NCBI RefSeq assembly: GCF_030506305.1
Contig: NZ_CP119421.1
Span: 176,354 to 240,353, forward strand
DNA: 64,000 nt
From: Porifericola rhodea
GTDB taxonomy: Bacteria; Bacteroidota; Bacteroidia; Cytophagales; Cyclobacteriaceae
Reading direction: 5' to 3'
Part shown: positions 8,227 through 47,926 of the stretch, piece by piece
Position numbering within the stretch: position 1 is the stretch's first letter
Layout of the letters: every line of letters starts with the position of its first letter
Program-made: the position numbers and the translations under genes
The notes under the pieces: generated by a model
Told to the model about the DNA's origin: nothing
Database searches by the model: none
The model's input: only the letters and a program-made list of their open reading frames with translations

Positions 8227-8248
8227 TAGCTAAGCTCATTAATAAGGT

Positions 8249-8281
8249 AAAAGGCTGACAGTACTTGTCAGCCTTTTTTTA
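8249..8281. terminator. Bidirectional intrinsic terminator: GGCTGAC stem, AGTACTT loop, GTCAGCC stem, flanked by an A-run and a T-run
   Basis: A perfect 7-bp GC-rich stem. The T8 run follows on the plus strand and the A4 run precedes it. It sits between the convergent FKBP gene and the helicase gene. Confidence 0.75.
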
Positions 8282-9685: not shown

Positions 9686-9708
9686 AGCTGATGCTGTTAG
9701 CCTGCGTT

Positions 9709-29546: not shown

Positions 29547-30260
29547 ATGAACATTTTCAGAAGAATACTCAAAGTAGGACAAGCAGAAGCACATTCTGCC
29601 ATCAACCACCTGGAAGACCCTATTAAACTTACTGAACAGGGAATTCGCGATATGCGAGGCGATCTTGATAAAGCCTTACACGCTCTGGCTGAAGTGAAAG
29701 CACTAGCTATACGCACACAACGTGAACTTAACCAACAGCAAGATGTAAGCAAACAATATGAGCAGAAGGCAATATTGCTGCTTCAGAAAGCTCAGAAAAA
29801 TGAGTTAGATGCCACGGAGGCTGATCGTCTAGCAGCAGAAGCTTTAAATAAAAAAGAGCATGCTGATCAACAAGTAAGGAATCTGGCTACAGAAAAGAAA
29901 AAATATGATGAATCCGTGTTAAAATTGGAACATAATATTAATACGCTAAAATCAAATATTAGCCAGTGGGAAAATGAACTTCGCACACTCAAAGCTCGCA
30001 TGAAGGTAAGTACTGCCACTAAAACAATGAATAAGCAGTTGGCTAAAATTGATACTTCCAGTACCGTTTCTATGCTGGAGCGCATGAAAAATAAAGTAGA
30101 GCAGGAAGAAGCTTTAGCACAGTCATACGGAGAAATAGCTGCTGAACCTAAGTCACTGGACGATGAAATTGACCAGGCATTGGAGAGCGAGCAGGCTTCC
30201 TCCTCTCAAAAGCTACAGGACCTTAAACAAAAACTAGGTATTAACCCTAACACTCCATAG
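29547..30260 (+). CDS. pspA: PspA/IM30 (Vipp1) family protein, bacterial ESCRT-III superfamily
   Basis: 'MNIFRRILKVGQAEAHSAINHLEDPIKLTEQGIRDMRGDLDKALHALAEV...' aligns in register with the E. coli PspA N-terminus ('[37 protein letters not shown]'). It is 237 aa and predicted all-alpha coiled coil. Confidence 0.8.
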   Translation: MNIFRRILKVGQAEAHSAINHLEDPIKLTEQGIRDMRGDLDKALHALAEVKALAIRTQRELNQQQDVSKQYEQKAILLLQKAQKNELDATEADRLAAEALNKKEHADQQVRNLATEKKKYDESVLKLEHNINTLKSNISQWENELRTLKARMKVSTATKTMNKQLAKIDTSSTVSMLERMKNKVEQEEALAQSYGEIAAEPKSLDDEIDQALESEQASSSQKLQDLKQKLGINPNTP

Positions 30261-30262
30261 TC

Positions 30263-30886
30263 ATGAATGATCTTTTCAACGCCGCCATTGCCGCACCTAA
30301 CTTATTACCTACTGCCTTACTTATTTTTGTAATGGTATACTGGATAATTGTAATCATTGGTGCTGTTGATGTAGATGCCATAGACATAGATGTGGATATG
30401 GACACGGACGTTGATGGAGAGATTTCGGTATCCTGGCTTAATAATTTATTGTCGTTTTTTAATTTAGGCCAGGTACCTTTCATGATTTTCATGACCTTTC
30501 TGGTAGTCCCCTTATGGTCAGGCTCGGTCATGACCAATTATTATCTGAACAATCAATCTCTGCTACTTGGATTACTAATCCTTGTTCCTCTTCTTATATT
30601 AAGTGCATTTATAGCTAAGGTTGCTACTCAGCCTTTTACGAAGCTTTTCAACCATCTGGAAAACAGCATTGATGGTGGAGAAAGACAAATCGGTAAAATA
30701 TGCACGCTTATTACCTCAGCAGATGATGCCAGAGCCGGGCAAGCTAAAGTTGATACCGGTGGGGCTCCGCTCCTACTCAACGTAATTACTGACGAAGGCA
30801 CCAGCATGTTCAGTGGCGACACCGCCATAGTACTGGAGTATTTGGCAGATAGAAATGTCTACCTCATAGAGCCTTACATTGCATAA
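30263..30886 (+). CDS. YqiJ/NfeD-like inner-membrane protein: TM helices, an acidic DxD repeat, and a C-terminal OB-fold
   Basis: N-terminal TM segments, the segment 'DVDAIDIDVDMDTDVDGE', and a C-terminal beta-rich segment 'GKICTLITSADDARAGQAKVDTGGAPLLLNVITDEG...AIVLEY'. It sits immediately upstream of the flotillin gene, as in E. coli yqiJK. Confidence 0.6.
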   Translation: MNDLFNAAIAAPNLLPTALLIFVMVYWIIVIIGAVDVDAIDIDVDMDTDVDGEISVSWLNNLLSFFNLGQVPFMIFMTFLVVPLWSGSVMTNYYLNNQSLLLGLLILVPLLILSAFIAKVATQPFTKLFNHLENSIDGGERQIGKICTLITSADDARAGQAKVDTGGAPLLLNVITDEGTSMFSGDTAIVLEYLADRNVYLIEPYIA

Positions 30887-30916
30887 CGCATTCTTAACAC
30901 CCTAAAATAAATCATC

Positions 30917-33085: not shown

Positions 33086-33190
33086 GCATGATTACCATGA
33101 TGATGAACTGAGAGGCATAAGGGCGGAGTTTTCCGCTCTCTTGCTTTCTCCTACTGACCCTTCCATTGTATAGCTCCTTAATTTCAGACC

Positions 33191-36100
33191 ATGCAAAACC
33201 CTATAGTACAGCCTGAAAACATCAATATAGAAAGCGGCACCTATGAAGTGCTTCAAAAGAGATTAGCCCAAAGCCGGCAGCTACTTACCGAAAAGCTTAA
33301 CTCTCTAAACGAAGCTCGCAAATCGGTTTTTGGTTCATTGGAAACCAATTTACTTACCACCGAGAGGATACACACAGCAAATAACTGTATCCCATATGAC
33401 ATGGTCTCGCTCGGAGGACAGTTTATTTTTGGCTATAATGTGCACCTCGGACTCAAAAATCAGATAGAACTCTCCGATGTTTTTAGCATCTACACATATC
33501 ATGAGCACAGCTTTCATGAGCAAAGCCTGGCGTTAGTTGAAGATGAAACTTTTGTCAATGATTTTCAGAAGCTATACAAATATTATAAAGACACCATTTT
33601 TACCCGCTTTGTCAGCTCGGGGCCTTACCTCTACATGGTTTTCAGAATCAGCAAAGGTTTGGATGACATTAAAGCATTTAAGTGGCAGGTTCAGGGGGAT
33701 AAATTAGTCTACCTGGATGACCGAAGCGAGCTGGAAATAAAACAGGCTATTCAGCATGAGTTTCGCTGGCAAAGAGTCTCCAGAGACGCACACCGCAAAG
33801 GAAAACATCCACACATTTCAGTTGAAGATAAAGTCTTCGTTGAGACACTAAACGGAAAGCTCACCATAAAAATAGAAGACAATACTGATTCTGGTCATGG
33901 TATATATGAGGAGCCTGTAGATGATCCAGATCAAACCCTGGACGACGTTGAAATCTACTACAGTGTGTTAGAAAACCTGGTACTCCTAAAAATTCGTCCG
34001 TATCAGGAGAAGCAGTTCCGCTACCTCATCTTCAATACAAGACTACAGGAGGCCCGACGAATAGATGCAATAGAAGAAGCCTGCCTGCTCCTACCCGACG
34101 ACCAGGGAGTATTGTTTCCAAACGGCTATTATCTTCAGACCGGAGCCACCAAACTGTTTGAAAATGAACTACCTGACCTGAAGTTTGAAAAGAAGGTGCT
34201 CTCTCCAAATGGAGAAGATTTTCTATATGTATTTTACAATCGTGAGCAAGGTGTATATCAGCTACTTTTTTATAACCTGATCACTCAGCAGATGGGTACT
34301 CCTATCGTATGTCATGGTTACGCTATTTTTGATAATGGCGAACTCTGCTATTTTAATGCGGACCAGGAACCTAAAAAACACCACGCCATTCGTATCTGGC
34401 AAACTCCTTTTGTAGGACCTAATTATACCCTTGCACAGCAAAGTGACTCTTATCTGTATAAAGTTGGTAATAAGGATATTGTACGTCTTATGGCCGAAAG
34501 CCAGTTACTTATTAAGCTTATTGATAAGGGAGAAAACTACGAAAACCTCTACCTGGAATTAAAAAAACAATCTTCTACCATACTGGAAGCGTATTACTGG
34601 CTGGATAGAGCTGATGCTTTTCACATTAACGAACCAATACAGCAAATTTGTGATACTGCGGCTTCCGCGATAGATGAGTATGAGAAGGTTGTAAGTATTC
34701 GTAAGCAGACACACGAGCAATTATCCAATGTTAGCAAAAGTAGTGAGGTACTCCTCAAAAGTATACGCACCGCTCGTTACGCTCACATTCAGGAGTTTGT
34801 AGACCACCTTTCTGAACTTAGAAAACTTAGAGGTGAGATTGTATCGCTTCATGAGCTACGTTATATCAACAAACAGAAAGTAGAAGATTTAGAGCAGCAG
34901 GTAGAGGAAAGAAACGAAAAGCTGGCCCATCATTGTATTCGCTTTTTGTCACAAGAAGCGTCTCTGGATCCTTACCAAAATAAAATTGAAAAAATACAGG
35001 CAGAAATAGACCAGCTGAAGAAAGTGGTAGATGCAGAAAAGGTGGAAGCAGATATTAAACAAAGCTCGGCTGACCTGGAAATGCTGGTTGAAATAGTAAG
35101 TAACCTTAAAATTGAGGATGCCACACTCACTACTCAAATTATTGATCGTATTTCGGTGCTGTTTGCGGAATTCAATAAGATTAAAGCCGCACATAAGCGA
35201 AAACGCAAAGAATTATTAGGCAAAGAGGGAAAAGCAGAGTTTGAAGCACAAAAAAAGCTGGTCAATCAGGCCATGCTCAACTATCTGGATGTTGCAGATA
35301 CCCCCGACAGATGTGATGAATACCTGAACAAGCTGATGGTACAGCTGGAAGAACTGGAAGCTAGATTTGCTGAATTTGATGAGTTTGTTAGTCAGATCAA
35401 TGACCTGCGGGAGGACTTGTACAATGCCTTTGAAGCCAGAAAAGTACAGCTGGTAGAAGCTAGAAATAAACGGTCAAACACTCTGGCACAGTCAGCTGAA
35501 CGAATACTCAAGGCCATACAAAACCGTGTTAAAAGCATCAGTGAGATAAGTGAACTGAACGGCTACTTTGCCAGTGACCTCATGGTTGAAAAGGTCAATC
35601 GTATAGTAGCTGAGCTCAAAACACTACAGGATACTACCAAAGCAGATGATGTATTGAGCCAACTCAAAAGCCTGAAAGAAGATACTGTTCGCCAGATCCG
35701 CGACCGTTCGGAGATTTATGCTGAAGGAGGTAATACTATCCGCCTTGGCAACCATAGTTTTCTAGTAACTACCTCTAGCTTGGCTCTTACTATCCTCGTC
35801 AAAAACGGACAGCTGTATTATCACCTTAGTGGCACCAACTTTTATGAGCCAATCTTAAATAGTGAGCTTTCTGCTTATAAGCCCTACTGGGAACAGGCCA
35901 TACTATCTGAAAACGAGGAGGTATATCGCGCTGAATATTTGGCTTACTTACTTTTTAAAGCTTCTGAGCGCAGAGAAACTGCCCCCCTACACCAACTGGC
36001 CGATCTAGACGAAAAATCACTCCTTACAGTAGTGCAGGAGTTTATGGCTGGCCGATACGAAGAGGCTTATGTAAAAGGTGTGCATGACCATGATGCTATG

Positions 36101-38074
36101 CATATTCTAAAAAACCTATTGCAAATATACCAGTCGGCTGGCCTTTTAAGGTTTCATTCGGCTGCCAGAGTATGTGCCGCACTCTGTTGGAAATATTTCC
36201 TGAAAAAAGAACAAAAGGACTTTATCAACCATCAGCTTAAGGGTGCCGGCGCTATTCTCAAAGTTTTTCCAAACAGCGCTGTTTTTTCTGAGCTACTTGA
36301 GTTATTGCAATCAGAAATATCTCAATTTCTTAAAGCCTACCCCCTATTTACAGAATCTCTTTCAAAAGAAGCGGCTCTGTACCTCTTTGAGGAATTAAGT
36401 AGTGATGATGACTTCATATTCTCTCAACAGGCAAAGACAAAACAAGAAGCATTTGAGAAATACCTGGACAACAACAAAAATCGCAAAGCATATGAACAAT
36501 CAGTACAGAGCCTGAAGGCACATCCTTTTACTCAGTTTGAGCTAATCAAAAAGTGGGTATCATCCTGGACACAGGAGTATGGCCATGAGGGTGTAGCAGT
36601 AGATGAAGTAGCCTTCCTACTGTTTAGCGATCATGACACTTATCAGACACATAACACAGAACTTAGCATAGCACTTAGCGGCTTACAAGGCAATCACTCC
36701 TTACTCAATGAAGGCAACTATCAGCTTGACTACGTCGCGTTTATGCAGAAACTAAGGGTTTTTGCAGAAGAAGCCGTACCTGACTTTAAAGCTTTTCAGC
36801 AGTTGAAAAAGGAGTTGACGCAGCAGTTTGAAGCAGAACTGAAGCTAGATAGCTTTAAACCTAAAGTCATGAGCGCTTTTGTCCGCAACCGACTAATTGA
36901 CAAAGTCTACTTTCCTCTCATCGGGGCTAACTTAGCCAAACAAATTGGCGCAGCTGGTGCTGATAAACGCACTGACCGTATGGGCATGCTACTTCTGATT
37001 TCGCCCCCTGGCTATGGTAAAACGACATTGATGGAATACGTAGCCAACCGCCTGGGTATCATTTTCATGAAAATCAACGGGCCCGCTATCGGACATACCG
37101 TCACTTCAGTAGACCCGGAAGCAGCGCCTAATGCAGCAGCCAGAGAAGAGCTACATAAGCTCAACCTGGCCTTTGAAATGGGCGATAACGTTATGATTTA
37201 CCTGGATGACATTCAACATTGCCACACAGAATTTTTGCAAAAATTTATCTCCCTTTGTGATGCTCAGCGAAAAATTGAAGGGGTATACAAAGGTAAAAGC
37301 AAAACCTACGACTTCCGTGGAAAGAAGGTGTGTGTAGTTATGGCCGGAAACCCCTATACTGAAAGTGGAGAAAAATTTCAGATACCCGACATGCTTTCTA
37401 ATCGTGCAGATATTTATAATCTGGGTGATATTATTGGAGACTCTGCCGATGATTTTAAGCTGAGCTATATTGAGAACAGTCTTACCTCAAACCCTGTCCT
37501 TCATAAGCTCTCCAGCAAAAGTCAAAAAGATATTTATGCTATGATCCGTATCGCTGAAAGTGGAAGTCGCGAGGGAATAAGCTTTGAAGCTTCACATGCA
37601 GTTGAAGAAGTTAACGAATATGTAGAGGTGCTGAAAAAAATGATAACTGTCAGAGATGCTGTGCTTCGTGTAAATACGGAATATATACGCTCCGCAGCTC
37701 AGTCAGATGAGTACAGAACCGAACCTGCCTTTAAGCTACAGGGCTCTTACCGTGATATGAACAAAATGGCAGAAAAAGTACAGCCTATTATGAATGAGAA
37801 AGAGCTGCAAACCTTAATTATGTCGCATTACGAAAATGAGGCCCAGACCTTAACAAATGGCGCAGAAGCCAATCTTCTCAAATTTAAAAAGATGAGCAAT
37901 CAACTTAGTGATGCAGAAGCCAAACGCTGGGAGGAGATTAAAAGTATTTTCGCAAAAGCGCAGCAAACCAAGGCTTATGGTAATGGTGTAGGCCCGGCGG
38001 TAGAAAAAATGAATGATATTTCTAACAGTCTTAAGCTCATTGCCCAACATTTAACAAAAAACGGACAGGCATAA
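33191..38074 (+). CDS. Giant (1627 aa) multidomain protein with no recognisable N-terminal family, a long coiled coil, and a C-terminal AAA+ (MoxR/AAA_5-like) ATPase
   Basis: Walker A 'ISPPGYGKTT' at about aa 1272 (nt 37004-37027). Walker B 'MIYLDDIQH' at about aa 1335, followed by 'EFLQKFISLCDAQRKIE' and 'VCVVMAGNP'. A heptad-rich coiled coil runs across about aa 550-850. Public annotations of this protein type often read 'DNA repair ATPase'. Confidence 0.7.
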   Translation: MQNPIVQPENINIESGTYEVLQKRLAQSRQLLTEKLNSLNEARKSVFGSLETNLLTTERIHTANNCIPYDMVSLGGQFIFGYNVHLGLKNQIELSDVFSIYTYHEHSFHEQSLALVEDETFVNDFQKLYKYYKDTIFTRFVSSGPYLYMVFRISKGLDDIKAFKWQVQGDKLVYLDDRSELEIKQAIQHEFRWQRVSRDAHRKGKHPHISVEDKVFVETLNGKLTIKIEDNTDSGHGIYEEPVDDPDQTLDDVEIYYSVLENLVLLKIRPYQEKQFRYLIFNTRLQEARRIDAIEEACLLLPDDQGVLFPNGYYLQTGATKLFENELPDLKFEKKVLSPNGEDFLYVFYNREQGVYQLLFYNLITQQMGTPIVCHGYAIFDNGELCYFNADQEPKKHHAIRIWQTPFVGPNYTLAQQSDSYLYKVGNKDIVRLMAESQLLIKLIDKGENYENLYLELKKQSSTILEAYYWLDRADAFHINEPIQQICDTAASAIDEYEKVVSIRKQTHEQLSNVSKSSEVLLKSIRTARYAHIQEFVDHLSELRKLRGEIVSLHELRYINKQKVEDLEQQVEERNEKLAHHCIRFLSQEASLDPYQNKIEKIQAEIDQLKKVVDAEKVEADIKQSSADLEMLVEIVSNLKIEDATLTTQIIDRISVLFAEFNKIKAAHKRKRKELLGKEGKAEFEAQKKLVNQAMLNYLDVADTPDRCDEYLNKLMVQLEELEARFAEFDEFVSQINDLREDLYNAFEARKVQLVEARNKRSNTLAQSAERILKAIQNRVKSISEISELNGYFASDLMVEKVNRIVAELKTLQDTTKADDVLSQLKSLKEDTVRQIRDRSEIYAEGGNTIRLGNHSFLVTTSSLALTILVKNGQLYYHLSGTNFYEPILNSELSAYKPYWEQAILSENEEVYRAEYLAYLLFKASERRETAPLHQLADLDEKSLLTVVQEFMAGRYEEAYVKGVHDHDAMHILKNLLQIYQSAGLLRFHSAARVCAALCWKYFLKKEQKDFINHQLKGAGAILKVFPNSAVFSELLELLQSEISQFLKAYPLFTESLSKEAALYLFEELSSDDDFIFSQQAKTKQEAFEKYLDNNKNRKAYEQSVQSLKAHPFTQFELIKKWVSSWTQEYGHEGVAVDEVAFLLFSDHDTYQTHNTELSIALSGLQGNHSLLNEGNYQLDYVAFMQKLRVFAEEAVPDFKAFQQLKKELTQQFEAELKLDSFKPKVMSAFVRNRLIDKVYFPLIGANLAKQIGAAGADKRTDRMGMLLLISPPGYGKTTLMEYVANRLGIIFMKINGPAIGHTVTSVDPEAAPNAAAREELHKLNLAFEMGDNVMIYLDDIQHCHTEFLQKFISLCDAQRKIEGVYKGKSKTYDFRGKKVCVVMAGNPYTESGEKFQIPDMLSNRADIYNLGDIIGDSADDFKLSYIENSLTSNPVLHKLSSKSQKDIYAMIRIAESGSREGISFEASHAVEEVNEYVEVLKKMITVRDAVLRVNTEYIRSAAQSDEYRTEPAFKLQGSYRDMNKMAEKVQPIMNEKELQTLIMSHYENEAQTLTNGAEANLLKFKKMSNQLSDAEAKRWEEIKSIFAKAQQTKAYGNGVGPAVEKMNDISNSLKLIAQHLTKNGQA

Positions 38075-38138: not shown

Positions 38139-38867
38139 TTGAATTATTTCATATATATGAAGGTGAATACTACGAGCAATCATTCCGAAGCAATATTTTT
38201 AAGTCGCTGGCCACGCTTTTTTGCGGTAGCCTCCTGTATCTTTATCGGAATATTTCTGCTTTTGCCTTCCAGCTTACTTTTAAGCACTTTATTTACTCTT
38301 TTTTTTTCTGCTTTTATTTATACCGGGAGGTGCTTATGGAAACCATTAGGCACTTGGGGTGGTGCGGCTAATGCAATTACTGCACTCAGAACTTTAGGCA
38401 TACTGCTGTTGCTGTTTTTTCAGGCAGAGTTGCCTCCGGCAGCATTTTTTGTTGTAGGAATACTGATACTAATCGCCGACGGACTAGACGGTTATTATGC
38501 CCGCAAATATAATACAGTATCTGCCTTCGGAGATTTATTTGATAAAGAAACTGACGCTTTCTTTGTACTGGCTTTTTGTATTATCCTGATCAAAAAAGAG
38601 CTGATAGGTATGTGGGTAGTTTGGCCTGCCCTACTACGCTACATCTTTGTATTGGTACTTCACACCTTCCGTATACAACATATAGTTTTGTCCTACTCTT
38701 TTCGCAGGCAGTTTATAGGCATGTGGTTTATGGGTACTATCATGGCCTGTTTTGTGCTGCCCAGACCTGTTTATACCGCAGGGATGATTTTCGCTACAGC
38801 TATGCTAGCTTATTCTTTTATGAAAGATACTTTTCTGATGTTAAAACTTAAATCAGATCAGGGGTAA
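38139..38867 (+). CDS. CDP-alcohol phosphatidyltransferase family membrane protein
   Basis: Signature 'DGLDGYYARKYNTVSAFGDLFDKETD' (D-G-x2-A-R-x8-G-x3-D-x3-D) in a polytopic membrane protein. The start is uncertain; there is an alternative ATG at 38157. Confidence 0.7.
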   Translation: MNYFIYMKVNTTSNHSEAIFLSRWPRFFAVASCIFIGIFLLLPSSLLLSTLFTLFFSAFIYTGRCLWKPLGTWGGAANAITALRTLGILLLLFFQAELPPAAFFVVGILILIADGLDGYYARKYNTVSAFGDLFDKETDAFFVLAFCIILIKKELIGMWVVWPALLRYIFVLVLHTFRIQHIVLSYSFRRQFIGMWFMGTIMACFVLPRPVYTAGMIFATAMLAYSFMKDTFLMLKLKSDQG

Positions 38868-39733
38868 GCAAAAATATCGCTATGGTCTACAATGATCTCC
38901 AGTTTATGGTCATGCGACATTTTCTTCTTGGCCTCCAGCCATTCTTCCAGATCTATAATCTCTGCCGGACTCAAATTTAGATCGCGAAGCGCGTGTTCAA
39001 AAAAGTGCAGCAGATAATGATGCATAGTAGTATCATATCGTTTTAGATGCCACTGACTCCCCTCCTGCTCTACTAACATTTGGTGCTCAGTAAGAAGATC
39101 AAGCATTTCTTCGGTGCAGTTAGGCCCCATAGCCGAACCAAAATCCTGTGGTCTTGTCATATGGGTATGGAAGTACCTTACAAAACGGCCATCTTCCTCA
39201 TCATAAGGCAGAAATGAAGTTTCGTAATAATTTAGTGTGGCCATCAGGCACACATTATAGGCAGAAAGCTTGCAGGCAAAGCTATCAAACTGATCGTAGC
39301 TTAGTAAGTCAAACAATGCATTGGCCGTCACCACATCAGTTTGTTTAAGGTCGGTAAGGTGTTCTACGTTTTCTAACTTACCCTGGCTCATCTTTACCAG
39401 GGCCTGCTTTGCTCCATCTTTTATGCATACCGAACCATTCTGTTCTATAAACTCGTAGTTTTTCTTTTTAGCGAAACGATATAGCTTTTCCCGGCAGGCA
39501 TTCAGTAGCGGTCCTTCACAGTCTATAAATGTCCACTCCTGCTGATTAGGAAATTTTTCAAAGTAATACTGAAAGTTAGATCCGGTACCAGAACCTGCAT
39601 CTACCACTGTCAAAGAATCTCTATCCTCAAAAAACTCAAGGAATTTCTTTTCAATATTGGCATTTCTTGCTTCGGCATCGCAGTTGAAGCGATGATCTAA
39701 CCACATGATAGGATCGTCGTAATTGATATGCAT
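38858..39733 (-). CDS. Class I SAM-dependent methyltransferase
   Basis: Motif I 'VVDAGSGTGSN', a Rossmann-type fold, 291 aa. Confidence 0.7.
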   Translation of the reverse strand: MHINYDDPIMWLDHRFNCDAEARNANIEKKFLEFFEDRDSLTVVDAGSGTGSNFQYYFEKFPNQQEWTFIDCEGPLLNACREKLYRFAKKKNYEFIEQNGSVCIKDGAKQALVKMSQGKLENVEHLTDLKQTDVVTANALFDLLSYDQFDSFACKLSAYNVCLMATLNYYETSFLPYDEEDGRFVRYFHTHMTRPQDFGSAMGPNCTEEMLDLLTEHQMLVEQEGSQWHLKRYDTTMHHYLLHFFEHALRDLNLSPAEIIDLEEWLEAKKKMSHDHKLEIIVDHSDIFAYP

Positions 39734-39737
39734 AACT

Positions 39738-40799
39738 TTAGATATAAAAATCCCTAAACAAGTTTAAAAAAAAAGCAGCTGCCTGCTCCCACTGGTAGGG
39801 CTGGGAAGAGGTACGTGCCACTTTTGCTGATTGCCAATATTCACGCATCAGCCTGTCATTCCTACATAATTCTATGAAATTTCCCGCTAATTTGAAAATA
39901 TTTGGGCTTATCAGACCTTTTCCTTTCAGTAAATGCCTTTCCGTGAAGCCCCCTTTGCACAACAAAAGCGGCAGACCACAGCTTTTTGCCTCTTGAATAG
40001 CCATACCAAAAGTCTCCATTTGTGCAGCAGACACAAACAGATGATGCAGACTATATTGCTGTAATACTTCATGGTGCTCCATCTCTCCGCTAAAGTGCAC
40101 CTTACTTTTTAAACTACTGCTTTGTACCAGCTTTTGGCAAGATTGGTAATAAGCCGGTTCCATATCGGTACGACCGATAATATTGATCATAAAATCATCT
40201 TCTGCCTTACTTAAATAGGCTAGCTGCTCAAGGAAGCTGAGTATACCTTTACGCTCAACTACATTGGCTACCATTATAGCTTTCAGGGGTTTACTCAAAC
40301 TTGAAGAAGGTACATCCACCACGCTATAGGCAGGCTCTACTACCATCATATGGCCTTCCATCTTCTTTTCCAGAAGGTAAGCTTTTGAAAACTCGCTGGT
40401 CAGGAGGAATACATCAAAAAAACGCAGTACCGGAGCCTCAGCTTGCAAAAAGTATTGCTCTGCATCTATCCCCTTTGGTGGAAACAGGCTTTGCAGATGA
40501 TGCATAATAAAAAACGAAAAAGCCTTTTTAGGGCTGTATTTCAACAGCTTATGCATCTCTTCTACAAAAAGGCTATCTACACCATAGATGCCCGCCTTAT
40601 CTGCCTGAATTACCTTATGGTACTCAGGAAAACTCATAATTTCTACGGACTGACCTAACTGAAGTAGCGCCTGTATCAGCTTTTCATTATACAGATTACC
40701 CCCTGAGGGCAAATGCCTGTCGTCTGGCAGTACAAAATTAATGGTTTGCGGAAGTACCTGAACCTGGCCACTCATGGCATTAGGCCACTTTGCCTTCAT
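39738..40799 (-). CDS. Glycosyltransferase family 1 (GT4-like)
   Basis: C-terminal GT1 motif region 'LFVSAAQMETFGMAIQEAKSCGLPLLLCKGG'. Confidence 0.7.
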   Translation of the reverse strand: MKAKWPNAMSGQVQVLPQTINFVLPDDRHLPSGGNLYNEKLIQALLQLGQSVEIMSFPEYHKVIQADKAGIYGVDSLFVEEMHKLLKYSPKKAFSFFIMHHLQSLFPPKGIDAEQYFLQAEAPVLRFFDVFLLTSEFSKAYLLEKKMEGHMMVVEPAYSVVDVPSSSLSKPLKAIMVANVVERKGILSFLEQLAYLSKAEDDFMINIIGRTDMEPAYYQSCQKLVQSSSLKSKVHFSGEMEHHEVLQQYSLHHLFVSAAQMETFGMAIQEAKSCGLPLLLCKGGFTERHLLKGKGLISPNIFKLAGNFIELCRNDRLMREYWQSAKVARTSSQPYQWEQAAAFFLNLFRDFYI

Positions 40800-41160
40800 A
40801 AGACGCCCAGGCTACATGCGACTCACCCAGCGTAATTTTGAGGCTTCCTGTAAAGCTGTCTTTTATCTCATCGCTTATCTGCTGATGGATGTAGTGGGCC
40901 AGAAATTCTGTAGTGGTAAGTTTACCTTTGAACTGCGCTAACTCATCCAAATTCTGGTACTTGAGAGGAGCCAAGGCCTGTTGTAGTTTTTTGGTAGCAA
41001 TATCAATATCTATGACAATATTATTTTCATCCAGTTGCTCAGATTTAAACTCAGCATCCACAACATATGTAGCACCATGCATATGCTGCGCAGGGCCAAA
41101 AGCTTTGGCAGGTAGTGAATGCGCGATCATCATATGATCGCGAATGGTGACTGTGTACAT
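40780..41160 (-). CDS. 6-pyruvoyl-tetrahydropterin synthase / QueD-like family enzyme
   Basis: 126 aa with 'TIRDHMMIAHSL' and 'HMHGATYVV' (an HGH-N-Y-like zinc motif). It overlaps the upstream and downstream genes, suggesting translational coupling. Confidence 0.6.
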   Translation of the reverse strand: MYTVTIRDHMMIAHSLPAKAFGPAQHMHGATYVVDAEFKSEQLDENNIVIDIDIATKKLQQALAPLKYQNLDELAQFKGKLTTTEFLAHYIHQQISDEIKDSFTGSLKITLGESHVAWASYEGKVA

Positions 41161-41175
41161 AATAAACGGTTTAGC

Positions 41176-42132
41176 TTAGGTATAATCAATCGCCCAGCTC
41201 AACTGGCTGAGGTTTCCATTCCTTATTTTATCAAAAAGTGAGGGTACTTCCTTAAAATCAATTGTCTGCCCTATATGTTGGTCAAATGCGGCATCTTTCA
41301 ACAGCTCCATTATAGTAGATTTTCGCCTTTGGTAGTTCCAGCGAGCACTCTTGTTGGCAGGAATCTGTGATACCTGCGAACTTAGAATTTGCTTGCGCTG
41401 ATAATGAAAGCTCCCTCCTAAAGAAATGTTAACAGCTTGCTCTCCATACCAGCTTAGCTCTACCACTTTGCCTTCCATACCTGTATGCTCTATGCAATGT
41501 TGTAGTCCGGCACTGCTGCCGCTACAATGAAAAGCTATATCGTATTCTTTAAAACGGTCTACCAGAGAAAAGCCCATAGCTTCTGCTACGCCACAACGCA
41601 CTTCATCAGTATCAAATACTGAAACTTTTACACCCGCTATTGCCTGAAGCAGACGAGCAGTAAGTGAGCCAATTATGCCAAAGCCTATCAGAAGCACTTC
41701 ATCTCCAATACTTACTCCTGAGTCCCAGACCGCATTGAGAGCAGTTTCCAGATTGGAAGCTAAAACGGCACGCAAAGGAGGTATATCTGAGGGAATAAGC
41801 GTTAAGTCACTGGCATGTACCAGGCAAACATTTTGATGAGGATGAAGCAGATGAACCATCTCTCCTACCCATTCGTCAGGCCCTTCTATAACTTCGCCTA
41901 CCAGGGAGTAACCATATTTGATAGGCAATTCAAAATTACCCTCCATATAGGGTACTGCCATTTGCTGCTGTAGGCTTGCAGGCACTTTACCAGAAGCAAC
42001 CAGGCGTTCGGTTCCCGTACTGATCAGGCTGTAATGAGCTTTAATCATACAGTCAGCGCCGGCAGGACTTAAGACCGGGGCAATTTCGGTTTTTCGCGCT
42101 GAGCTATGCCATACCGCTTCAGCTTCGTTCAT
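41176..42132 (-). CDS. Zinc-dependent medium-chain dehydrogenase/reductase (MDR, threonine/sorbitol dehydrogenase-like)
   Basis: Cofactor-binding 'VLLIGFGIIGSLTARLLQAIAG' and the N-terminal 'SLISTGTERLV' catalytic region. Confidence 0.65.
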   Translation of the reverse strand: MNEAEAVWHSSARKTEIAPVLSPAGADCMIKAHYSLISTGTERLVASGKVPASLQQQMAVPYMEGNFELPIKYGYSLVGEVIEGPDEWVGEMVHLLHPHQNVCLVHASDLTLIPSDIPPLRAVLASNLETALNAVWDSGVSIGDEVLLIGFGIIGSLTARLLQAIAGVKVSVFDTDEVRCGVAEAMGFSLVDRFKEYDIAFHCSGSSAGLQHCIEHTGMEGKVVELSWYGEQAVNISLGGSFHYQRKQILSSQVSQIPANKSARWNYQRRKSTIMELLKDAAFDQHIGQTIDFKEVPSLFDKIRNGNLSQLSWAIDYT

Positions 42133-43090
42133 AGCTTTGAGTATTCATGGTACCTACAAACATATAAGTATTACCCATGGGATAAAAAGTAAAATGGTCA
42201 AAGTGAACTGCCTGATCTACCTGCCCGATTTCCGGTAGCTTAAAGCTGCTGATGCCTGAGCCAAAAATCATAGGTGAGATGTGTAACTGCACAATATCAG
42301 TGGCTTGCTCTTCGATAAAGGCGGATGTAGTAGTGGCCCCACCTTCTATGTATACCGAATGTATACCTCTCTGATACAAAAATTTCATCAACTCCTGGCA
42401 GTCTATTCGGTCGTTGGCATTTGCCTGAAAAGCTACATATTCTGTTTGAGGAATTTGTGGGTCTTTACAAGTACCCACAATCAGCACATGATCTTTGCAG
42501 TGCTTCTTCAGGCTGCTGTAATCCGCATCGCTGGAGCATATTACAATTCGCTGTGGATTTCTACCTTCTACCAAGCGTACTGTAAGGGCCGGATGATCAT
42601 AATTGAGTGTATTAGCACCAATCAGTATGCTATCGCATAGTGCACGCATACGGTGAGCATGTATCAGGTTCTCCTGATTGCCTATCCATTTAGAGTCGCC
42701 ACTTTGAGTAGCAATTTTTCCGTCTAGCGATTGGGCAAAGTGGGTTACACCTACTGCCCTACCCATTTGCCGGGCATGCAGGCTCAGGAAACAGTAGGGC
42801 AAGTATGCTTTAAGAAAACTGAGCTTATCTTCTGTCAGGTTTATATTTTGCACTACCTCCAGCTGATAAGTATTGAGCTTAAAAATATTGGCCTGCTTAT
42901 GCTCTGTAATGTGCTCGGGATTGAGCACTACCATAAGCAGTAGGCTATCTTTTGAGGGTACAGGTAAGTGATTAATTCTGACTTCGGGTGATGCTCCTAA
43001 CTGCAAAAAGCAATAATCTACTTTGTCTTCAGATTTTTTAATATTATCTGCAAGAAGTAATAATCCTGACCAGTAGTCTTCTATCTCCAT
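42119..43090 (-). CDS. RibD C-terminal-domain-type reductase (diaminohydroxyphosphoribosylaminopyrimidine reductase-like) with an N-terminal extension of about 100 aa
   Basis: 'SLDGKIATQSGDSKWIGNQENLIHAHRMRALCDSILIGANTL...YIEGGATTTSAFIEE' matches the RibD_C/DHFR-like fold. No deaminase domain is present. Confidence 0.7.
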   Translation of the reverse strand: MEIEDYWSGLLLLADNIKKSEDKVDYCFLQLGASPEVRINHLPVPSKDSLLLMVVLNPEHITEHKQANIFKLNTYQLEVVQNINLTEDKLSFLKAYLPYCFLSLHARQMGRAVGVTHFAQSLDGKIATQSGDSKWIGNQENLIHAHRMRALCDSILIGANTLNYDHPALTVRLVEGRNPQRIVICSSDADYSSLKKHCKDHVLIVGTCKDPQIPQTEYVAFQANANDRIDCQELMKFLYQRGIHSVYIEGGATTTSAFIEEQATDIVQLHISPMIFGSGISSFKLPEIGQVDQAVHFDHFTFYPMGNTYMFVGTMNTQSYERS

Positions 43091-43127
43091 ATATCTACAA
43101 TAAGCCCTTTTATGTAAATGTTTAGCC

Positions 43128-43730
43128 TTATTTACTGATATCTAAGAGGTGGCCCATCAGGTTTTGTTTGGTTTGCAGATAATCTAAATTTTCTTCGTGA
43201 GGCTTTATCTCTATCGGTACTCTGCCCAGTACTTCTACACCTGACTCTTTTAAGCTTTCCAGCTTATCCGGATTGTTAGTCATTAGCAGTACAGAGCTTA
43301 CTTCAAGGTCTCTGAGTATATCAATTGCAATGCTGTAGTCTCTTTCGTCTATTTCAAAACCCAGGTGCACATTGGCTTCGGCGGTATTCAGCCCTTTGTC
43401 CTGTAGGTTATACGCTTTCATCTTGTTAATCAGGCCTATACCTCTTCCTTCCTGTCGCAGGTAAATTACTACTCCGCCATCTTTTCCGGTCATTTTCATA
43501 GATTGATCCAGTTGCTCGCCACAGTCGCAACGCAGAGAGCCAAACACATCGCCGGTCATACACTCAGAATGTATACGTACCAATACCGGTTTGCTAAAAT
43601 CTGTCTTATCGCTCACCATAGCCAGGTGGGGCATGGGGTTATCCGCCTCTCCGGAATATCCGATCATTTTAAAAGAACCAAAGCGAGTAGGTAATTTCGT
43701 TTCTGCTTGTCTTACTAATTTATGTGTCAT
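43128..43730 (-). CDS. ribA: GTP cyclohydrolase II, a stand-alone RibA-type enzyme
   Basis: 'LVRIHSECMTGDVFGSLRCDCGEQL' (the zinc-binding Cys triad), 'GRGIGLINKMKAYNLQDKGLNTAEAN', 200 aa. Confidence 0.85.
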   Translation of the reverse strand: MTHKLVRQAETKLPTRFGSFKMIGYSGEADNPMPHLAMVSDKTDFSKPVLVRIHSECMTGDVFGSLRCDCGEQLDQSMKMTGKDGGVVIYLRQEGRGIGLINKMKAYNLQDKGLNTAEANVHLGFEIDERDYSIAIDILRDLEVSSVLLMTNNPDKLESLKESGVEVLGRVPIEIKPHEENLDYLQTKQNLMGHLLDISK

Positions 43731-43835
43731 ATGAGTTTTCAGCTCTTCAGTACAGATACTTCTACGGAGGAAGTATGAGCGGTGTTAGGTTTACAAATAT
43801 AGAACAGAAAGTTCACCAAGTTACATTATTTCCGA

Positions 43836-45191
43836 TTAGCGAGAAACTTCCACCTCTACCATCTTTACTTCGCTTACCTTACTAATCAGCAAATAGGAGA
43901 TTACAGCAGCTAACAGATGCGATAACGGGTAGGCGGCAAGTATACCATCATAGCTGTCTAAAAGGACTGCACCGTAGGCAAATGGAAGGTAAAATAAAAA
44001 CAGGTGGCACAAGCCTAATGCTGTAGCCCACCAGGGTCGGAGGTATACATTAAGCACAGTCAGGCTAATCATTACAAAACCATTTACAGCATAGCCCCAG
44101 GGCACGATGCTTAAATAGTTGTTCAACGCTTTAAAGGTGGCAGCATCGGTAGCAAATATGGCACTGATATCTTCTCGGAAAAAACTGATAACGAAAGCTG
44201 CGACTACCCCTAATGCAAAAGCATATGAAATACCATATTGTAGCCCCTTCTGAGCACGCTCATGTTTCAGAGCACCCAGGTTTTGCCCAATAAATGGAGC
44301 CATTACAGAAGTAAGAGAAGTAAAAGAAAGTATGACCAGCATATCTATACGAGACCCTGCCCCGTAGGCAGAAACAGCCGCATTACCAAAATGGCTCAGC
44401 AGTTTGACAAAGAGGGTATTGCCCAGAGGTACCATCACATTGGTAAGAGCTATAGGAAAAGCCATAACTACAATAGGACGCCATCGGAAGGCGTTTACCG
44501 ACGCCCAACTGATAGAAGTGTTTTGCTTAAGCTCTTTCCATAGGTATGGTACGGGTATCCACATACTTACAAAGATGGCTAAAGTAGTAGCCCATGCTGC
44601 TCCGGCAATGCCTAGTTTGGGAAAGCCAGCATAACCGAAAATAAGCAAAGGATCTAGCACCGCGTTTATAGCTACAAGTACCAACATGGTATAAGTTAGC
44701 AGTTTATGGTTGCCCAGTGCTCGTGCCAGACTCGTTACCGCCACCAGCAGGCAGAGAAAGAACAATCCGGGTACTAGTATGTCAAAATAGGCCATCAGCT
44801 CGCTGAGCACATCTTTTCTGGCGCCCAACTGCACAAAAAGGGCTCTGCTTCCCAATGATAACACTCCCCACATTAATAAGCCAAACCCTAAAGCAAAGCT
44901 AAAACAGCTAACGATAAGCGAATGCAGTTTTTTTATTTTGTTTCTCCCTGCTGCATTGGCTACCACCACTACCATTCCTGCCCCTATCCCTAGCAGCATG
45001 CTCACCAGCAGCGTCATTACCGGAGTAGCATAACTGATAGCGGTAAGGGCATGGCTACCCAACTGGCTGATAAAGTACACATCTATCAACATAAAAGAAG
45101 CCATCATCAGTACTCCCAGCAGCAGCACACCCGATTGTTTCAGTATATATTTGGCAATATTTCCATGCAAAACCTGTGACATAGGCTGCAA
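43836..45191 (-). CDS. MATE-family efflux transporter
   Basis: 451 aa, 12 TM segments, the MatE repeat pattern. Same strand and upstream of the ribA-like operon. Confidence 0.8.
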   Translation of the reverse strand: MQPMSQVLHGNIAKYILKQSGVLLLGVLMMASFMLIDVYFISQLGSHALTAISYATPVMTLLVSMLLGIGAGMVVVVANAAGRNKIKKLHSLIVSCFSFALGFGLLMWGVLSLGSRALFVQLGARKDVLSELMAYFDILVPGLFFLCLLVAVTSLARALGNHKLLTYTMLVLVAINAVLDPLLIFGYAGFPKLGIAGAAWATTLAIFVSMWIPVPYLWKELKQNTSISWASVNAFRWRPIVVMAFPIALTNVMVPLGNTLFVKLLSHFGNAAVSAYGAGSRIDMLVILSFTSLTSVMAPFIGQNLGALKHERAQKGLQYGISYAFALGVVAAFVISFFREDISAIFATDAATFKALNNYLSIVPWGYAVNGFVMISLTVLNVYLRPWWATALGLCHLFLFYLPFAYGAVLLDSYDGILAAYPLSHLLAAVISYLLISKVSEVKMVEVEVSR

Positions 45192-45277: not shown

Positions 45278-46204
45278 ATGCACAATCAGGTCGTTGTCAT
45301 AGGGAGCTCCAACATAGATTTGATTGCCCGGCTTAGTCACCTTCCCAAGCCCGGCGAAACTGTAGGTAATGCCGAATCCAGTCAGGCTCACGGAGGCAAG
45401 GGAGCCAATCAGGCAGTAGCTGCCGCACGTGCCGGGGCTGCTGTCAGTTTTATCACTTCTCTGGGAGACGATGCCTTCGCTGATAGTATGCTCCAGGACT
45501 TTAAGAGAAGCGGTATCAATACAGACTATGTTGTACAGCATAAGAATACGCCTACCGGTACAGCCTATATTTGGGTAGATGCTCAGGGAGAAAATAGTAT
45601 AGCGGTAGCTCCGGGCGCCAATTATAAGTTAAGCCCAGACTATATAGATGAATGTAGAATACTTATCTCTGGGGCAGAGCTAATTTTGCTTCAGCTGGAA
45701 ATACCCTTTGAAACGGTAGAATATGTAATAGACCTGGCTGCCAGCCTGGGAAAAAAGGTTATGCTTAATCCTGCGCCTGCTCAAAAACTGGAACGCAAAC
45801 ATCTGAAAGCACTCTATAACCTTACTGTTAACGAAACAGAAGCCGCCATGATCAGTGGGCTGCCCGTTGACAGTCCGGAACAGGTAATGGAAGCAGGTAA
45901 AAAGTTACTAAGCATGGGCCCGGAAATGGTAGTGATTACCCTAGGCTCTAGAGGTGTTTTTTATCTGACTAAAAGAGAGCAAAAGATGGTAGAAGCTTAT
46001 CCGGTAAAACCGGTAGATACCACTGCTGCCGGGGATGTATTTTGTGGAGTGCTGGCTTCGCAGATTGTACAAAACAAAAAAATGATGGAGGCTATCAAAT
46101 ACGCGAATGCAGCTGCTGCTCTATCTACTACCCGATTAGGAGCTCAGCCTTCTGCGCCCAATCAGCAGGAGATTAAGGCTTTTCTGGACCAGCATGAATT
46201 TTAA
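45278..46204 (+). CDS. rbsK: Ribokinase (PfkB family)
   Basis: 'VVVIGSSNIDL', 'GGKGANQAVAAAR' and the C-terminal 'DTTAAGDVFCG' anion hole. Confidence 0.85.
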   Translation: MHNQVVVIGSSNIDLIARLSHLPKPGETVGNAESSQAHGGKGANQAVAAARAGAAVSFITSLGDDAFADSMLQDFKRSGINTDYVVQHKNTPTGTAYIWVDAQGENSIAVAPGANYKLSPDYIDECRILISGAELILLQLEIPFETVEYVIDLAASLGKKVMLNPAPAQKLERKHLKALYNLTVNETEAAMISGLPVDSPEQVMEAGKKLLSMGPEMVVITLGSRGVFYLTKREQKMVEAYPVKPVDTTAAGDVFCGVLASQIVQNKKMMEAIKYANAAAALSTTRLGAQPSAPNQQEIKAFLDQHEF

Positions 46205-46999: not shown

Positions 47000-47926
47000 A
47001 TGATAATACATCAACTACAAATCTACCAACAAACCATGCCTGCCATGTTCAAGACAATTTTCTTCTCCATACTCTTTGTATTATGCTGCCATTTTAGTTT
47101 CGCACAGACCGATTCTGGCATATTACGTATAGTAGTTATTGGCGGCCATCCCGATGATGCTGACATAAAAGCGGGAGGCAGCGCTATACTTTGGGCCAAG
47201 ATGGGGCATGAAGTTAAATTTGTATCGGTAACCAATGGAGATGCCGGACATCAGACAGAAGGAGGAGGCGCATTGGCACGCCGTCGTATGGAAGAAGCGC
47301 GTGAGTCTGCCAAGCGCATGGGCATTGCAGCCTATGTTGTGCTGGACAACCATGACGCGGAACTGGTTCCCAGCCTGGATGTTCGCAAACAGATTATTCG
47401 TGAAATAAGAAAGTGGGATGCTGACCTGGTGATCACTCACCGTACAAACGACTATCATCCTGACCACAGATATACCGGCGTACTGGTGCAGGATGCTGCC
47501 TTCCTGGTAGCGGTGCCCAATGTAACGCCCGATACTCCTCCACTAGAGAAAAACCCTGTCTTTATGTACCTGAAAGATAACTTTTTGAAGCCCTACCCCT
47601 TTCAGCCTGATATAGTAGTAGCAATAGATGATGTGTTTGAACAGAAAATTAATGCTTTAGATGCGCACGAATCTCAGTTTTATGAGTGGCTACCGTGGAT
47701 CTATGGCAAGCAAGAAGTACCAGAAAGCCCCGAAGATCGTAAAGCCATGCTTCGCCAGAGCCGCACTACCGAAATTACACCTTCTATGCGCGCCTCTCTG
47801 GTTCGCTGGTACGGAAAAGAGAAGGCTGCACAGGTAAAGCATGCTGAAGCTTTTGAGATTTGTGAGTACGGTACTCAACCCACCGAGGCCATGATCAAAA
47901 AGCTCTTTCCTATGCTGGGCAAGTAG
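47000..47926 (+). CDS. PIG-L/LmbE family N-acetylglucosaminyl deacetylase, secreted
   Basis: 'VVIGGHPDDADIKAGGSAI', 'VSVTNGDAGH' and 'HRTNDYHPDHR', with a signal peptide. The likely start is MPAMFK at 47036. Confidence 0.75.
   Translation: MIIHQLQIYQQTMPAMFKTIFFSILFVLCCHFSFAQTDSGILRIVVIGGHPDDADIKAGGSAILWAKMGHEVKFVSVTNGDAGHQTEGGGALARRRMEEARESAKRMGIAAYVVLDNHDAELVPSLDVRKQIIREIRKWDADLVITHRTNDYHPDHRYTGVLVQDAAFLVAVPNVTPDTPPLEKNPVFMYLKDNFLKPYPFQPDIVVAIDDVFEQKINALDAHESQFYEWLPWIYGKQEVPESPEDRKAMLRQSRTTEITPSMRASLVRWYGKEKAAQVKHAEAFEICEYGTQPTEAMIKKLFPMLGK

Follow-up and report, generated by a model that had tools for sequence, protein, structure and literature searches.

A window of 64 kb from the genome of Porifericola rhodea (the window being the whole stretch of DNA analysed, 64,000 nucleotides in length) contains an operon of six minus-strand genes and, converging on it, a gene for a membrane protein of the CDP-alcohol phosphotransferase family. 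There are good grounds for regarding this locus as the P. rhodea copy of a widespread gene cluster anchored by a protein of the PTPS-IV subfamily, a cluster that includes SCO6650 of Streptomyces coelicolor. Two further conclusions are similarly well grounded: that GTP enters by way of a diaminopyrimidine nucleotide, and that the locus, being without the riboflavin-specific steps at the cluster, is not a riboflavin pathway. As to the product, the balance of probability tips slightly towards a pathway, distinct from that of riboflavin, from GTP to a methylated, glycosylated pterin-like compound that is probably phospho-linked to a lipid. The locus adds a member to a known cluster, and the product of that cluster could still be new.

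Taken in operon order, the six genes encode a stand-alone GTP cyclohydrolase II (GCHII) of 200 aa (43128..43730, minus strand, as are the following five); a RibD_C pyrimidine reductase without a functional deaminase (42119..43090); a BchC-like MDR-family NAD(P) oxidoreductase apparently without catalytic zinc ligands (41176..42132); the PTPS-IV protein itself, a T-fold protein of COG0720 and near homologue of SCO6650 (40780..41160); a GT4-type glycosyltransferase (39738..40799); and, as last gene, a class I S-adenosylmethionine (SAM)-dependent methyltransferase belonging to a family without a characterised member (38858..39733). Co-transcription of all six is predicted from their spacing: GCHII and RibD_C are separated by +37 nt, RibD_C and MDR overlap by 14 nt, +15 nt lie between MDR and PTPS-IV, PTPS-IV and the glycosyltransferase overlap by 20 nt, and a gap of +4 nt precedes the methyltransferase. 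The open reading frame (ORF) of the convergent CDP-alcohol transferase (38139..38867, plus strand) overlaps the methyltransferase gene by 10 nt, and a gene for a MATE-family transporter lies upstream on the operon's own strand, its stop 105 nt from the GCHII start. A preliminary description of this DNA had called the same eight ORFs, all of which were recovered at its exact coordinates, and its gene calls and operon architecture are borne out by the ORF table, Pfam and NCBIfam; the ORF table contains no further ORFs inside the operon. Pfam backs every domain call, the ADH_zinc_N and methyltransferase matches being weak and under the Pfam cut-offs, and the sole curated NCBIfam cut-off reached among the cluster proteins is that of RibA, by GCHII; a SAR11-type orthologous locus likewise gave no curated NCBIfam name beyond RibA. 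The closest named relatives are Catalinimonas species. A horizontally acquired island was ruled out on base composition, as GC content across the cluster (0.40-0.45) is similar to that of the remaining window.

The identity of the cluster turns on the PTPS-like protein, which matches Pfam PTPS at 1e-23 and bears AFGPAQHMHGATY, containing the FGPAQ signature of PTPS-IV. Its best solved relative is PDB 3D7J, 'Uncharacterized protein SCO6650' from S. coelicolor, at an E-value of 4.4e-35 over residues 1-123. The FGPAQ signature has been described as typical of PTPS-IV, and GCHII (PF00925) and RibD_C (PF01872) as neighbours of PTPS-IV genes in two network nodes, the larger with 561 sequences (PMC5445326); both families are present in the P. 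rhodea operon. PTPS-IV also appears among the COG0720 subfamilies listed in a 2016 review, which gives the motifs of PTPS-I/II/III as CxxxHGH, CxxxxxHGH or ExxHGH, with a catalytic Cys or Glu and three zinc-binding His (PMC5041015). None of these motifs is found here, and the protein is one zinc-binding His short. In alignment with the Caenorhabditis elegans PTPS 2G64, the catalytic Cys is replaced by Ala24, HGH by His28-Gly29-Ala30 and the Asp-His dyad by Lys-Tyr, whilst the glutamates of TTE and ES are retained. The replacements of the Cys and of HGH are family-wide, and the T-T-E motif and the distal Glu are conserved; among 42 representatives S15, F21, G22, A24, H28, L71 and E113 are invariant and P23 nearly so. 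One of the two retained glutamates may, in our reading, correspond to the anchor of the 2-amino-4-oxopyrimidine/pterin ring in PTPS. Scores against the NCBIfam models for QueD (40 bits vs a cut-off of 89) and 6PTHBS (37 bits vs 125) are low, and from its sequence the protein is a PTPS-IV, not a PTPS or QueD. The earlier designation 'PTPS/QueD-like enzyme' must accordingly be given up, with catalytic Cys, one zinc-binding His and Asp-His dyad all replaced. Fusion proteins in metagenomes join MDR to PTPS-IV (P0234) and PTPS-IV to the glycosyltransferase (P0297). Elsewhere PTPS-IV is fused to an RNase_T domain (P0196), and four metagenomic proteins of 375-855 aa (P0169, P0171, P0172 and P0174) consist of three to four tandem PTPS-IV-like stretches with no other Pfam domain; some of these tandem or fusion proteins could be artefacts of gene calling.

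The extent of the cluster was surveyed from its PTPS-IV anchor. An exhaustive HMMER search (E<=1e-10) recovered 548 PTPS-IV clusters at 50% identity, and when one genome from each species was scanned, at least 581 of these genomes proved to contain a relative. Eighty loci were fetched, and their six-frame ORFs were searched with the window proteins and then with per-family jackhmmer profiles; genes within 8 kb were counted in the 53 loci in which PTPS-IV has 7 kb or more of sequence on either side (hereafter fully flanked), to which the following counts refer. An MDR gene adjacent to PTPS-IV is present in 52/53, a glycosyltransferase in 49, a methyltransferase of the window's family in 44 (with a second class I methyltransferase in five and an FkbM-type methyltransferase in ten), the CDP-alcohol transferase in 39, RibD_C in 37, GCHII in 29, the flippase-like LPG_synthase_TM (PF03706) in 23, and a creatininase-family protein in 20; no cytidylyltransferase is found among the recurrent families. 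These loci come from eight phyla (Bacteroidota, Planctomycetota, Alpha-, Beta- and Gammaproteobacteria, Actinomycetota, Gemmatimonadota and Myxococcota), the proteobacterial ones including uncultured marine single-cell genomes, several of them alphaproteobacterial, and a Pelagibacterales single-amplified genome (SAG). As dozens of genomes across eight phyla hold this gene set together, in differing gene orders, the linkage lies far beyond chance, and accidental juxtaposition is ruled out; the neighbourhood comparison that the preliminary description had proposed as a check thus came down on the side of conserved linkage. Its further statements, that the operon is an 'orphan' and that no cluster of this composition was known, were overturned by the same survey, since the PTPS-IV gene set recurs across all these phyla, Streptomyces loci included, and the linkage of PTPS-IV, GCHII and RibD_C was already in print (PMC5445326; PMC5041015).

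Gene content varies in a nested fashion. Glycosyltransferase and CDP-alcohol transferase occur together in 39 loci, the glycosyltransferase without the transferase in ten, neither in four and the transferase without the glycosyltransferase in none, and LPG_synthase_TM is accompanied by the transferase in 22 of its 23 occurrences. Paracoccus-type loci are minimal, with GCHII, MDR, PTPS-IV, methyltransferase and RibD_C only, and SAR11-type loci, also without the transferase, add a glycosyltransferase, a creatininase-family gene and a histidine-phosphatase gene. The nesting and the minimal loci together suggest a core that builds a methylated heterocycle, followed by a glycosylation module and then a membrane module. 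The transferase holds its place through three different arrangements: it is transcribed away from MDR in Beta- and Gammaproteobacteria and Actinomycetota, runs towards the methyltransferase in Cytophagales, and is co-directional within the operon in two loci (L017, L018). That it belongs to the pathway, as had been supposed of the P. rhodea gene, is strongly supported by its presence in 39/53 loci, by linkage maintained through these different orders and by its never occurring without the glycosyltransferase. In uncultured marine Alphaproteobacteria (L031, positions 7671-9025, and L027, L032 and L034), a creatininase-family gene (ArfB/MftE-like) and a histidine-phosphatase-family gene (CobC-like) lie divergent from MDR, in the spot that the CDP-alcohol transferase occupies in many other proteobacterial loci; GCHII in loci of this type is 385 aa long and matches full-length RibA/RibBA-type NCBIfam models. 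The cluster can also be split: on two metagenome contigs (L001 and L002, positions 9200-10879) a cluster-type methyltransferase, 51% identical to that of the window, lies beside a 199-aa GCHII only, with no PTPS-IV, MDR, glycosyltransferase or transferase within 10 kb.

Entry into the pathway is the part most firmly tied to known chemistry. GCHII matches Pfam GTP_cyclohydro2 at 2e-63 and the NCBIfam RibA subfamily at 260 bits (cut-off 148), which upholds its description as a stand-alone enzyme, and its translation contains the zinc-Cys motif HSECMTGDVFGSLRCDCG and the key Tyr, KAYNLQD aligning with RAYALQD of Escherichia coli RibA. The Tyr is shared by all eight other aligned Bacteroidota copies, and a creatininase-family gene is nearby in none of these or in the window. 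Fifteen actinomycete copies carry Met or His at this position, and 14 of the 15 have a creatininase-family gene in the cluster. The Met variant SCO6655, reportedly the one enzyme of a PTPS-IV cluster to have been characterised biochemically, is said to halt at the formylated product. Creatininase-family enzymes have been shown experimentally to remove the formyl group from the formylated product of GTP ring opening, giving the diaminopyrimidine nucleotide (PMC9478397). The Tyr-type enzyme and the combination of Met/His-type enzyme with creatininase-family gene can therefore be seen as converging on 2,5-diamino-6-ribosylamino-pyrimidinone 5'-phosphate.

For the second gene, the Pfam RibD_C match (9e-37) covers residues 117-290 only, and neither a Pfam deaminase domain nor an H-x-E or PCxxC motif was found in the N-terminal part. 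The nearest solved relatives are the archaeal diaminopyrimidine-nucleotide reductase (the best, from Methanocaldococcus jannaschii) and bacterial RibD. The N-terminal 110 residues are confidently predicted to fold as a domain of one helix, five strands and a further helix; this domain is kept across Bacteroidota homologues, with a Trp near its start and a YLPY stretch kept across phyla. A reductase lacking the deaminase domain and bearing an extra N-terminal domain had been proposed from the outset, as had the view that the genes do not serve riboflavin synthesis, and both proposals stand, the second for this locus: scans of the eight proteins with Pfam and NCBIfam found no deaminase, RibB (DHBP synthase), RibH or RibE, and an Rfam scan of the 64-kb window found no riboswitch, the flavin mononucleotide (FMN) riboswitch included, nor any other family. 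A riboflavin operon was rejected on these grounds.

The MDR protein, the most constant partner of PTPS-IV, has BchC as its best NCBIfam match, at 57 bits and far under the cut-off, reaches 21 bits against ADH_zinc_N (cut-off 31.8), and found only weak matches in a sequence search of the PDB. An alignment of 22 orthologues has invariant GxGxxG, Ser38 (in SxGTE) and Tyr75 (in GY). We read Ser38 and Tyr75 as sitting where zinc alcohol dehydrogenases have CGTD and GHE, a correspondence of motifs drawn from an alignment that holds no such dehydrogenase. The enzyme would therefore lack the catalytic zinc ligands of a classical zinc alcohol dehydrogenase, and the label 'Zn-dehydrogenase', which presupposed them, no longer fits.

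Glycosyltransferase, methyltransferase and CDP-alcohol transferase can be placed with differing precision. The first matches Pfam Glycos_transf_1 (1e-17), with an E-x7-E motif (ETFGMAIQE) in its translation, and a profile of its orthologues finds sucrose-phosphate synthase 6KIH at 2e-43, MshA at 2e-30 and PimB' at 1e-25, enzymes that we take to be retaining and members of CAZy family GT4. The profile thus lies nearest to enzymes whose acceptors are phosphorylated sugars or polyols, or phosphatidylinositol, and the match to tetrahydrobiopterin glucosyltransferase is weaker (1.5e-4 with the single sequence and 2e-16 with the profile). The earlier name 'GT1' holds in so far as the Pfam family is Glycos_transf_1, but the closest solved relatives are GT4-type enzymes. 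The methyltransferase has sub-threshold Pfam matches only, with the SAM motif DAGSGTG present, in which D45, G49 and G51 are invariant and G47 nearly so. A PDB sequence search with the single protein gave no match, and the enzyme has no close solved relative; its AlphaFold2 model, with a predicted local distance difference test (pLDDT) score of 91.6, led Foldseek to generic class I small-molecule and lipid methyltransferases at template modelling (TM) scores of 0.4-0.6.

The CDP-alcohol transferase is the better defined, scoring 58.6 bits against Pfam CDP-OH_P_transf (1e-15, cut-off 22) and containing the full family motif D-x2-D-G-x2-A-R-x8-G-x3-D-x3-D (DGLDGYYARKYNTVSAFGDLFDKETD), which is invariant in 20 orthologues at D114, D117, G118, A121, R122, G131, D135 and D139. 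Its true start is probably ATG 38157, giving 236 aa as in the orthologues, and not TTG 38139. The best solved relative by profile is PgsA 7DRJ (1e-11), followed by choline/ethanolamine phosphotransferases, yet the protein falls under the NCBIfam equivalog cut-offs for pgsA (49 bits vs 109), ClsA (38 vs 240) and PIP synthase (19 vs 170); by these scores it is a subfamily distinct from PgsA, PssA, PIP synthase and cardiolipin synthase.

A GTP-derived, glycosylated and methylated product, as first suggested for this operon, is the natural reading of these genes, and the following route can be proposed. GCHII would open GTP to 2,5-diamino-6-ribosylamino-4(3H)-pyrimidinone 5'-phosphate, an activity established for the family and backed here by canonical residues, and the deaminase-less RibD_C protein would then reduce the ribosyl to a ribityl chain, as the archaeal and fungal reductases do. 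Since the cluster has no deaminase, the 2-amino group would be kept, and retention is favoured further by the conserved T-T-E motif and distal Glu of PTPS-IV. In a third step, the zinc-less MDR protein and the Cys-less, one-His-short PTPS-IV may remodel the intermediate into a core of pterin-like or pyrimidine type that carries a polyol(-phosphate) side chain, one option being that C2' is oxidised and the ring then closes to give a compound like dihydroneopterin phosphate. The SAM methyltransferase would methylate this core and the GT4 enzyme add a sugar, whereupon the CDP-alcohol phosphotransferase could join the glycoside by a phosphodiester, with CDP-diacylglycerol as the most economical donor and a membrane-anchored product as the outcome. 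Translocation might fall to the MprF-type flippase-like protein in other phyla, and in this lineage MATE, of the MOP superfamily, might serve. Characterised relatives stand behind the first two steps only; the third to fifth we infer from family membership and co-occurrence. A late membrane step is favoured by the invariant transferase motif, by PgsA as its nearest relative, by the nested occurrence of the modules, by the glycosyltransferase profile and by the want of a recurrent cytidylyltransferase. Tentatively, and with rather less confidence than we place in the outline of the route, the product may be a new class of membrane lipid, in which a methylated, glycosylated GTP-derived polyol head group is carried on diacylglycerol phosphate and flipped across the membrane in at least eight phyla; this possible reading, to be held as loosely, would take in marine SAR11-type cells and Streptomyces.

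Several observations weigh against this account. The literature search found no paper naming a product of the cluster to which the third to fifth steps could be tied. In 14 of the 53 loci no transferase lies nearby, those of SAR11 and Paracoccus type included, so the link to lipid cannot be universal, and certain members of the CDP-alcohol transferase family use CDP-inositol or CDP-glycerol to make phosphodiesters that are soluble. Roughly a third to a half of the loci lack GCHII and RibD_C, and could draw their precursor from the housekeeping pathway and so from an intermediate already deaminated. The loci are, moreover, phylogenetically non-independent, and counting them one by one makes independent co-occurrence events seem more numerous than they are. 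Finally, PTPS-IV has been assigned to archaeal F420 synthesis in a review that cites unpublished work (PMC5041015).

The most serious alternative, though a doubtful one, dispenses with the lipid: the product would be a soluble, secreted, methylated glycoside of a pterin or diaminopyrimidine, exported by MATE, with the CDP-alcohol transferase either unrelated or adding a polar phospho-alcohol. MATE does lie directly upstream here and in two related genomes, and the soluble products known for some CDP-alcohol transferases would accommodate the enzyme, as would the ten clusters with the glycosyltransferase only and the four with the core only, which manage without it. Yet MATE is found in none of the fully flanked loci, nor in two Cytophagales relatives, the conserved partners being instead the transferase and a flippase-like membrane protein, and the cluster has no conserved cytidylyltransferase with which to make a polar CDP-alcohol. 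The weak resemblance of the glycosyltransferase to the tetrahydrobiopterin enzyme also speaks for a soluble glycoside, but is far exceeded by its closeness to sucrose-phosphate synthase, MshA and PimB'. The cluster could instead furnish a primary-metabolic pterin cofactor independently of GTP cyclohydrolase I, reduction and re-oxidation at C2' mimicking the Amadori step to yield dihydroneopterin phosphate, which would then be tailored for some pterin-dependent enzyme or signalling system; we think this unlikely. A GCHII-based shunt to dihydroneopterin phosphate has reportedly been described in Chlamydia, PTPS-IV keeps what we read as a putative pterin/2-aminopyrimidinone-anchoring glutamate, and the cluster occurs in streamlined genomes (the uncultured alphaproteobacterial single-cell genomes and the Pelagibacterales SAG) and in the minimal, Paracoccus-type form of GCHII, RibD_C, MDR, PTPS-IV and methyltransferase. 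Against it, the distribution is patchy, and most copies come with a glycosyltransferase, a membrane phosphotransferase and a flippase-like protein, unusual company for a soluble cofactor; nor is any pterin-dependent enzyme conserved beside the cluster.

A housekeeping role, in which the genes would provide precursors of riboflavin or deazaflavin (F420/FO) by an alternative or auxiliary route, appears highly improbable. GCHII and a RibD-type reductase are riboflavin-pathway families, a link to riboflavin genes has been remarked upon (PMC5445326), and the tie of PTPS-IV to archaeal F420 noted above points the same way (PMC5041015). Against such a role, no deaminase, RibB, RibH, RibE, FO synthase or FMN riboswitch was found in or near the cluster, whose constant partners are instead MDR, glycosyltransferase, methyltransferase and membrane transferase. 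The cluster also occurs in phyla that, to our knowledge, are not known for F420.

Comparison with known systems helps to place the cluster. The nearest counterpart is the SCO6650/SCO6655 cluster itself, to which the P. rhodea locus is tied by the SCO6650 match and shared FGPAQ, and whose order in Streptomyces loci is CDP-alcohol transferase / MDR, PTPS-IV, glycosyltransferase, methyltransferase, LPG_synthase_TM / creatininase-like / GCHII, presumably reflected in the S. coelicolor numbering SCO6648-6655. The two differ in the entry enzymes, Tyr-type GCHII without a creatininase-family gene in the Bacteroidota copy versus Met/His-type with that gene in actinomycetes; in RibD_C, which is in the P. 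rhodea operon and within 8 kb in none of the Streptomyces loci sampled; and in LPG_synthase_TM, in place of which P. rhodea has a MATE gene. Riboflavin synthesis in archaea and fungi (ArfA/ArfB/ArfC; yeast Rib7) places reduction before deamination, and resembles the present cluster in following a GTP ring-opening enzyme with a stand-alone reductase devoid of deaminase. The logic of cyclohydrolase and creatininase-family formamidase is likewise shared with the cluster of other phyla (PMC9478397), whereas the later enzymes here are MDR, PTPS-IV, glycosyltransferase, methyltransferase and a membrane phosphotransferase, and the reductase has its extra N-terminal domain.

Towards the end of the proposed route, the pairing of a CDP-alcohol phosphotransferase with a GT4 enzyme recalls the phosphatidylinositol-mannoside and mycothiol pathways (PgsA/PIP synthase, PimA/PimB', MshA), and the nearest solved relatives of both proteins act on polyol phosphates or phosphatidyl-polyols. 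Both nevertheless lie far under the NCBIfam equivalog cut-offs, and the polyol is presumed to be part of a GTP-derived heterocycle rather than inositol, so that the likeness may indicate a mode of working, not membership. The pterin glycoside pathways of cyanobacteria and green sulfur bacteria likewise combine a heterocycle made from GTP with a member of the PTPS family and a glycosyltransferase (for example UDP-glucose:tetrahydrobiopterin glucosyltransferase) from the superfamily to which the one here belongs. Their first enzymes, however, are GTP cyclohydrolase I and a PTPS with its catalytic residues complete, while entry here is by GCHII and reductase, the PTPS-like protein is without the catalytic residues, and a membrane phosphotransferase is conserved. 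The toxoflavin (tox) cluster, offered earlier as an analogue, has a single operon that holds GCHII together with a SAM methyltransferase and a protein of the RibD family, and the analogy extends no further than GCHII and methyltransferase: the toxoflavin RibD-family protein keeps its deaminase and the cluster has ToxC and ToxD, whereas the P. rhodea operon has no deaminase and its MDR, PTPS-IV, glycosyltransferase and CDP-alcohol transferase have no counterpart there. A toxoflavin-type cluster was rejected on the missing deaminase and the absence of further operon ORFs, homology to ToxC and ToxD not having been searched for directly.

For well over a decade the PTPS-IV/SCO6650 cluster has counted among the known unknowns, with one structure (3D7J) solved. 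To this the survey adds a fixed core of MDR and PTPS-IV; add-on modules nested in the order glycosyltransferase, CDP-alcohol transferase and flippase-like protein; and a split at entry between Tyr-type GCHII and Met/His-type GCHII with a formamidase-family gene. Should the product prove to be a component of the membrane or a pterin cofactor of a new kind, it would represent a new branch of GTP metabolism and also a possible source of riboflavin-pathway-like compounds that microbes show to hosts.

The MATE gene (43836..45191, minus strand; Pfam MatE 2.5e-41) had been put forward as the exporter of the pathway, a role at odds with its distribution. In Catalinimonas niigatensis (L084) and a Cyclobacteriaceae metagenome-assembled genome (MAG; L085), as in the window, it is flanked by PfkB and GCHII, and it is missing from two other Cytophagales loci (L003, L005), in which PfkB abuts GCHII; one more Bacteroidota locus (L009) has a MATE gene within the cluster, and none of the fully flanked loci has one. 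It is a lineage-specific addition in a Cytophagales sub-lineage, its link to the pathway uncertain. The gap between MATE and GCHII contains TATATTTG (43794..43801, minus strand), a match to TAnnTTTG, the Bacteroidota -7 promoter consensus. This motif occurs 100 times in the window against 68 expected, a total that none of 100 shuffles reached, and a single match in a gap of this size has a chance of about 8%; no TAnnTTTG was found on the minus strand of the gap upstream of MATE, and a scan for sigma-70 promoters and terminators gave background level. The match at 43794-43801 is no more than suggestive of a putative promoter of the six genes' own.

Divergent from MATE lies a gene for a PfkB-family sugar kinase (45278-46204, plus strand), which adjoins the cluster in all five Cytophagales loci (the window, L003, L005, L084 and L085) and in only 3/53 overall, and probably reflects synteny within the lineage, not a part in the pathway. 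A PIG-L/LmbE-family de-N-acetylase (47000-47926, plus strand; Pfam 1e-24), encoded three genes away from the operon, has a hydrophobic N-terminus resembling a signal peptide; it is also near the cluster in L084, and not in L085 or L003. A GT4 enzyme with a PIG-L-family deacetylase is the pairing of mycothiol, bacillithiol and glycosylphosphatidylinositol (GPI) synthesis, its link to this cluster being unproven. On the other side, just upstream of the CDP-alcohol transferase, a four-gene block (29547-38074, plus strand) encodes a PspA/IM30 protein of 237 aa, two proteins of 207 and 722 aa without a Pfam match, and a protein of 1627 aa in which Pfam recognises DUF3686 ('ATPase involved in DNA repair'), DUF7902 and an AAA domain; this block is beside the cluster in C. 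niigatensis also, and not in the Cyclobacteriaceae MAG. In the Cytophagales locus L003, MDR and PTPS-IV are separated by the insertion of a rhomboid gene that reads in the other direction, and there are, some 1.5-3 kb from the start of the cluster (positions 1666-3214), an IS200/IS605-type Y1 transposase gene and an OrfB/Cas12f-like TnpB gene sitting among fragments of a GFO/IDH/MocA oxidoreductase gene.

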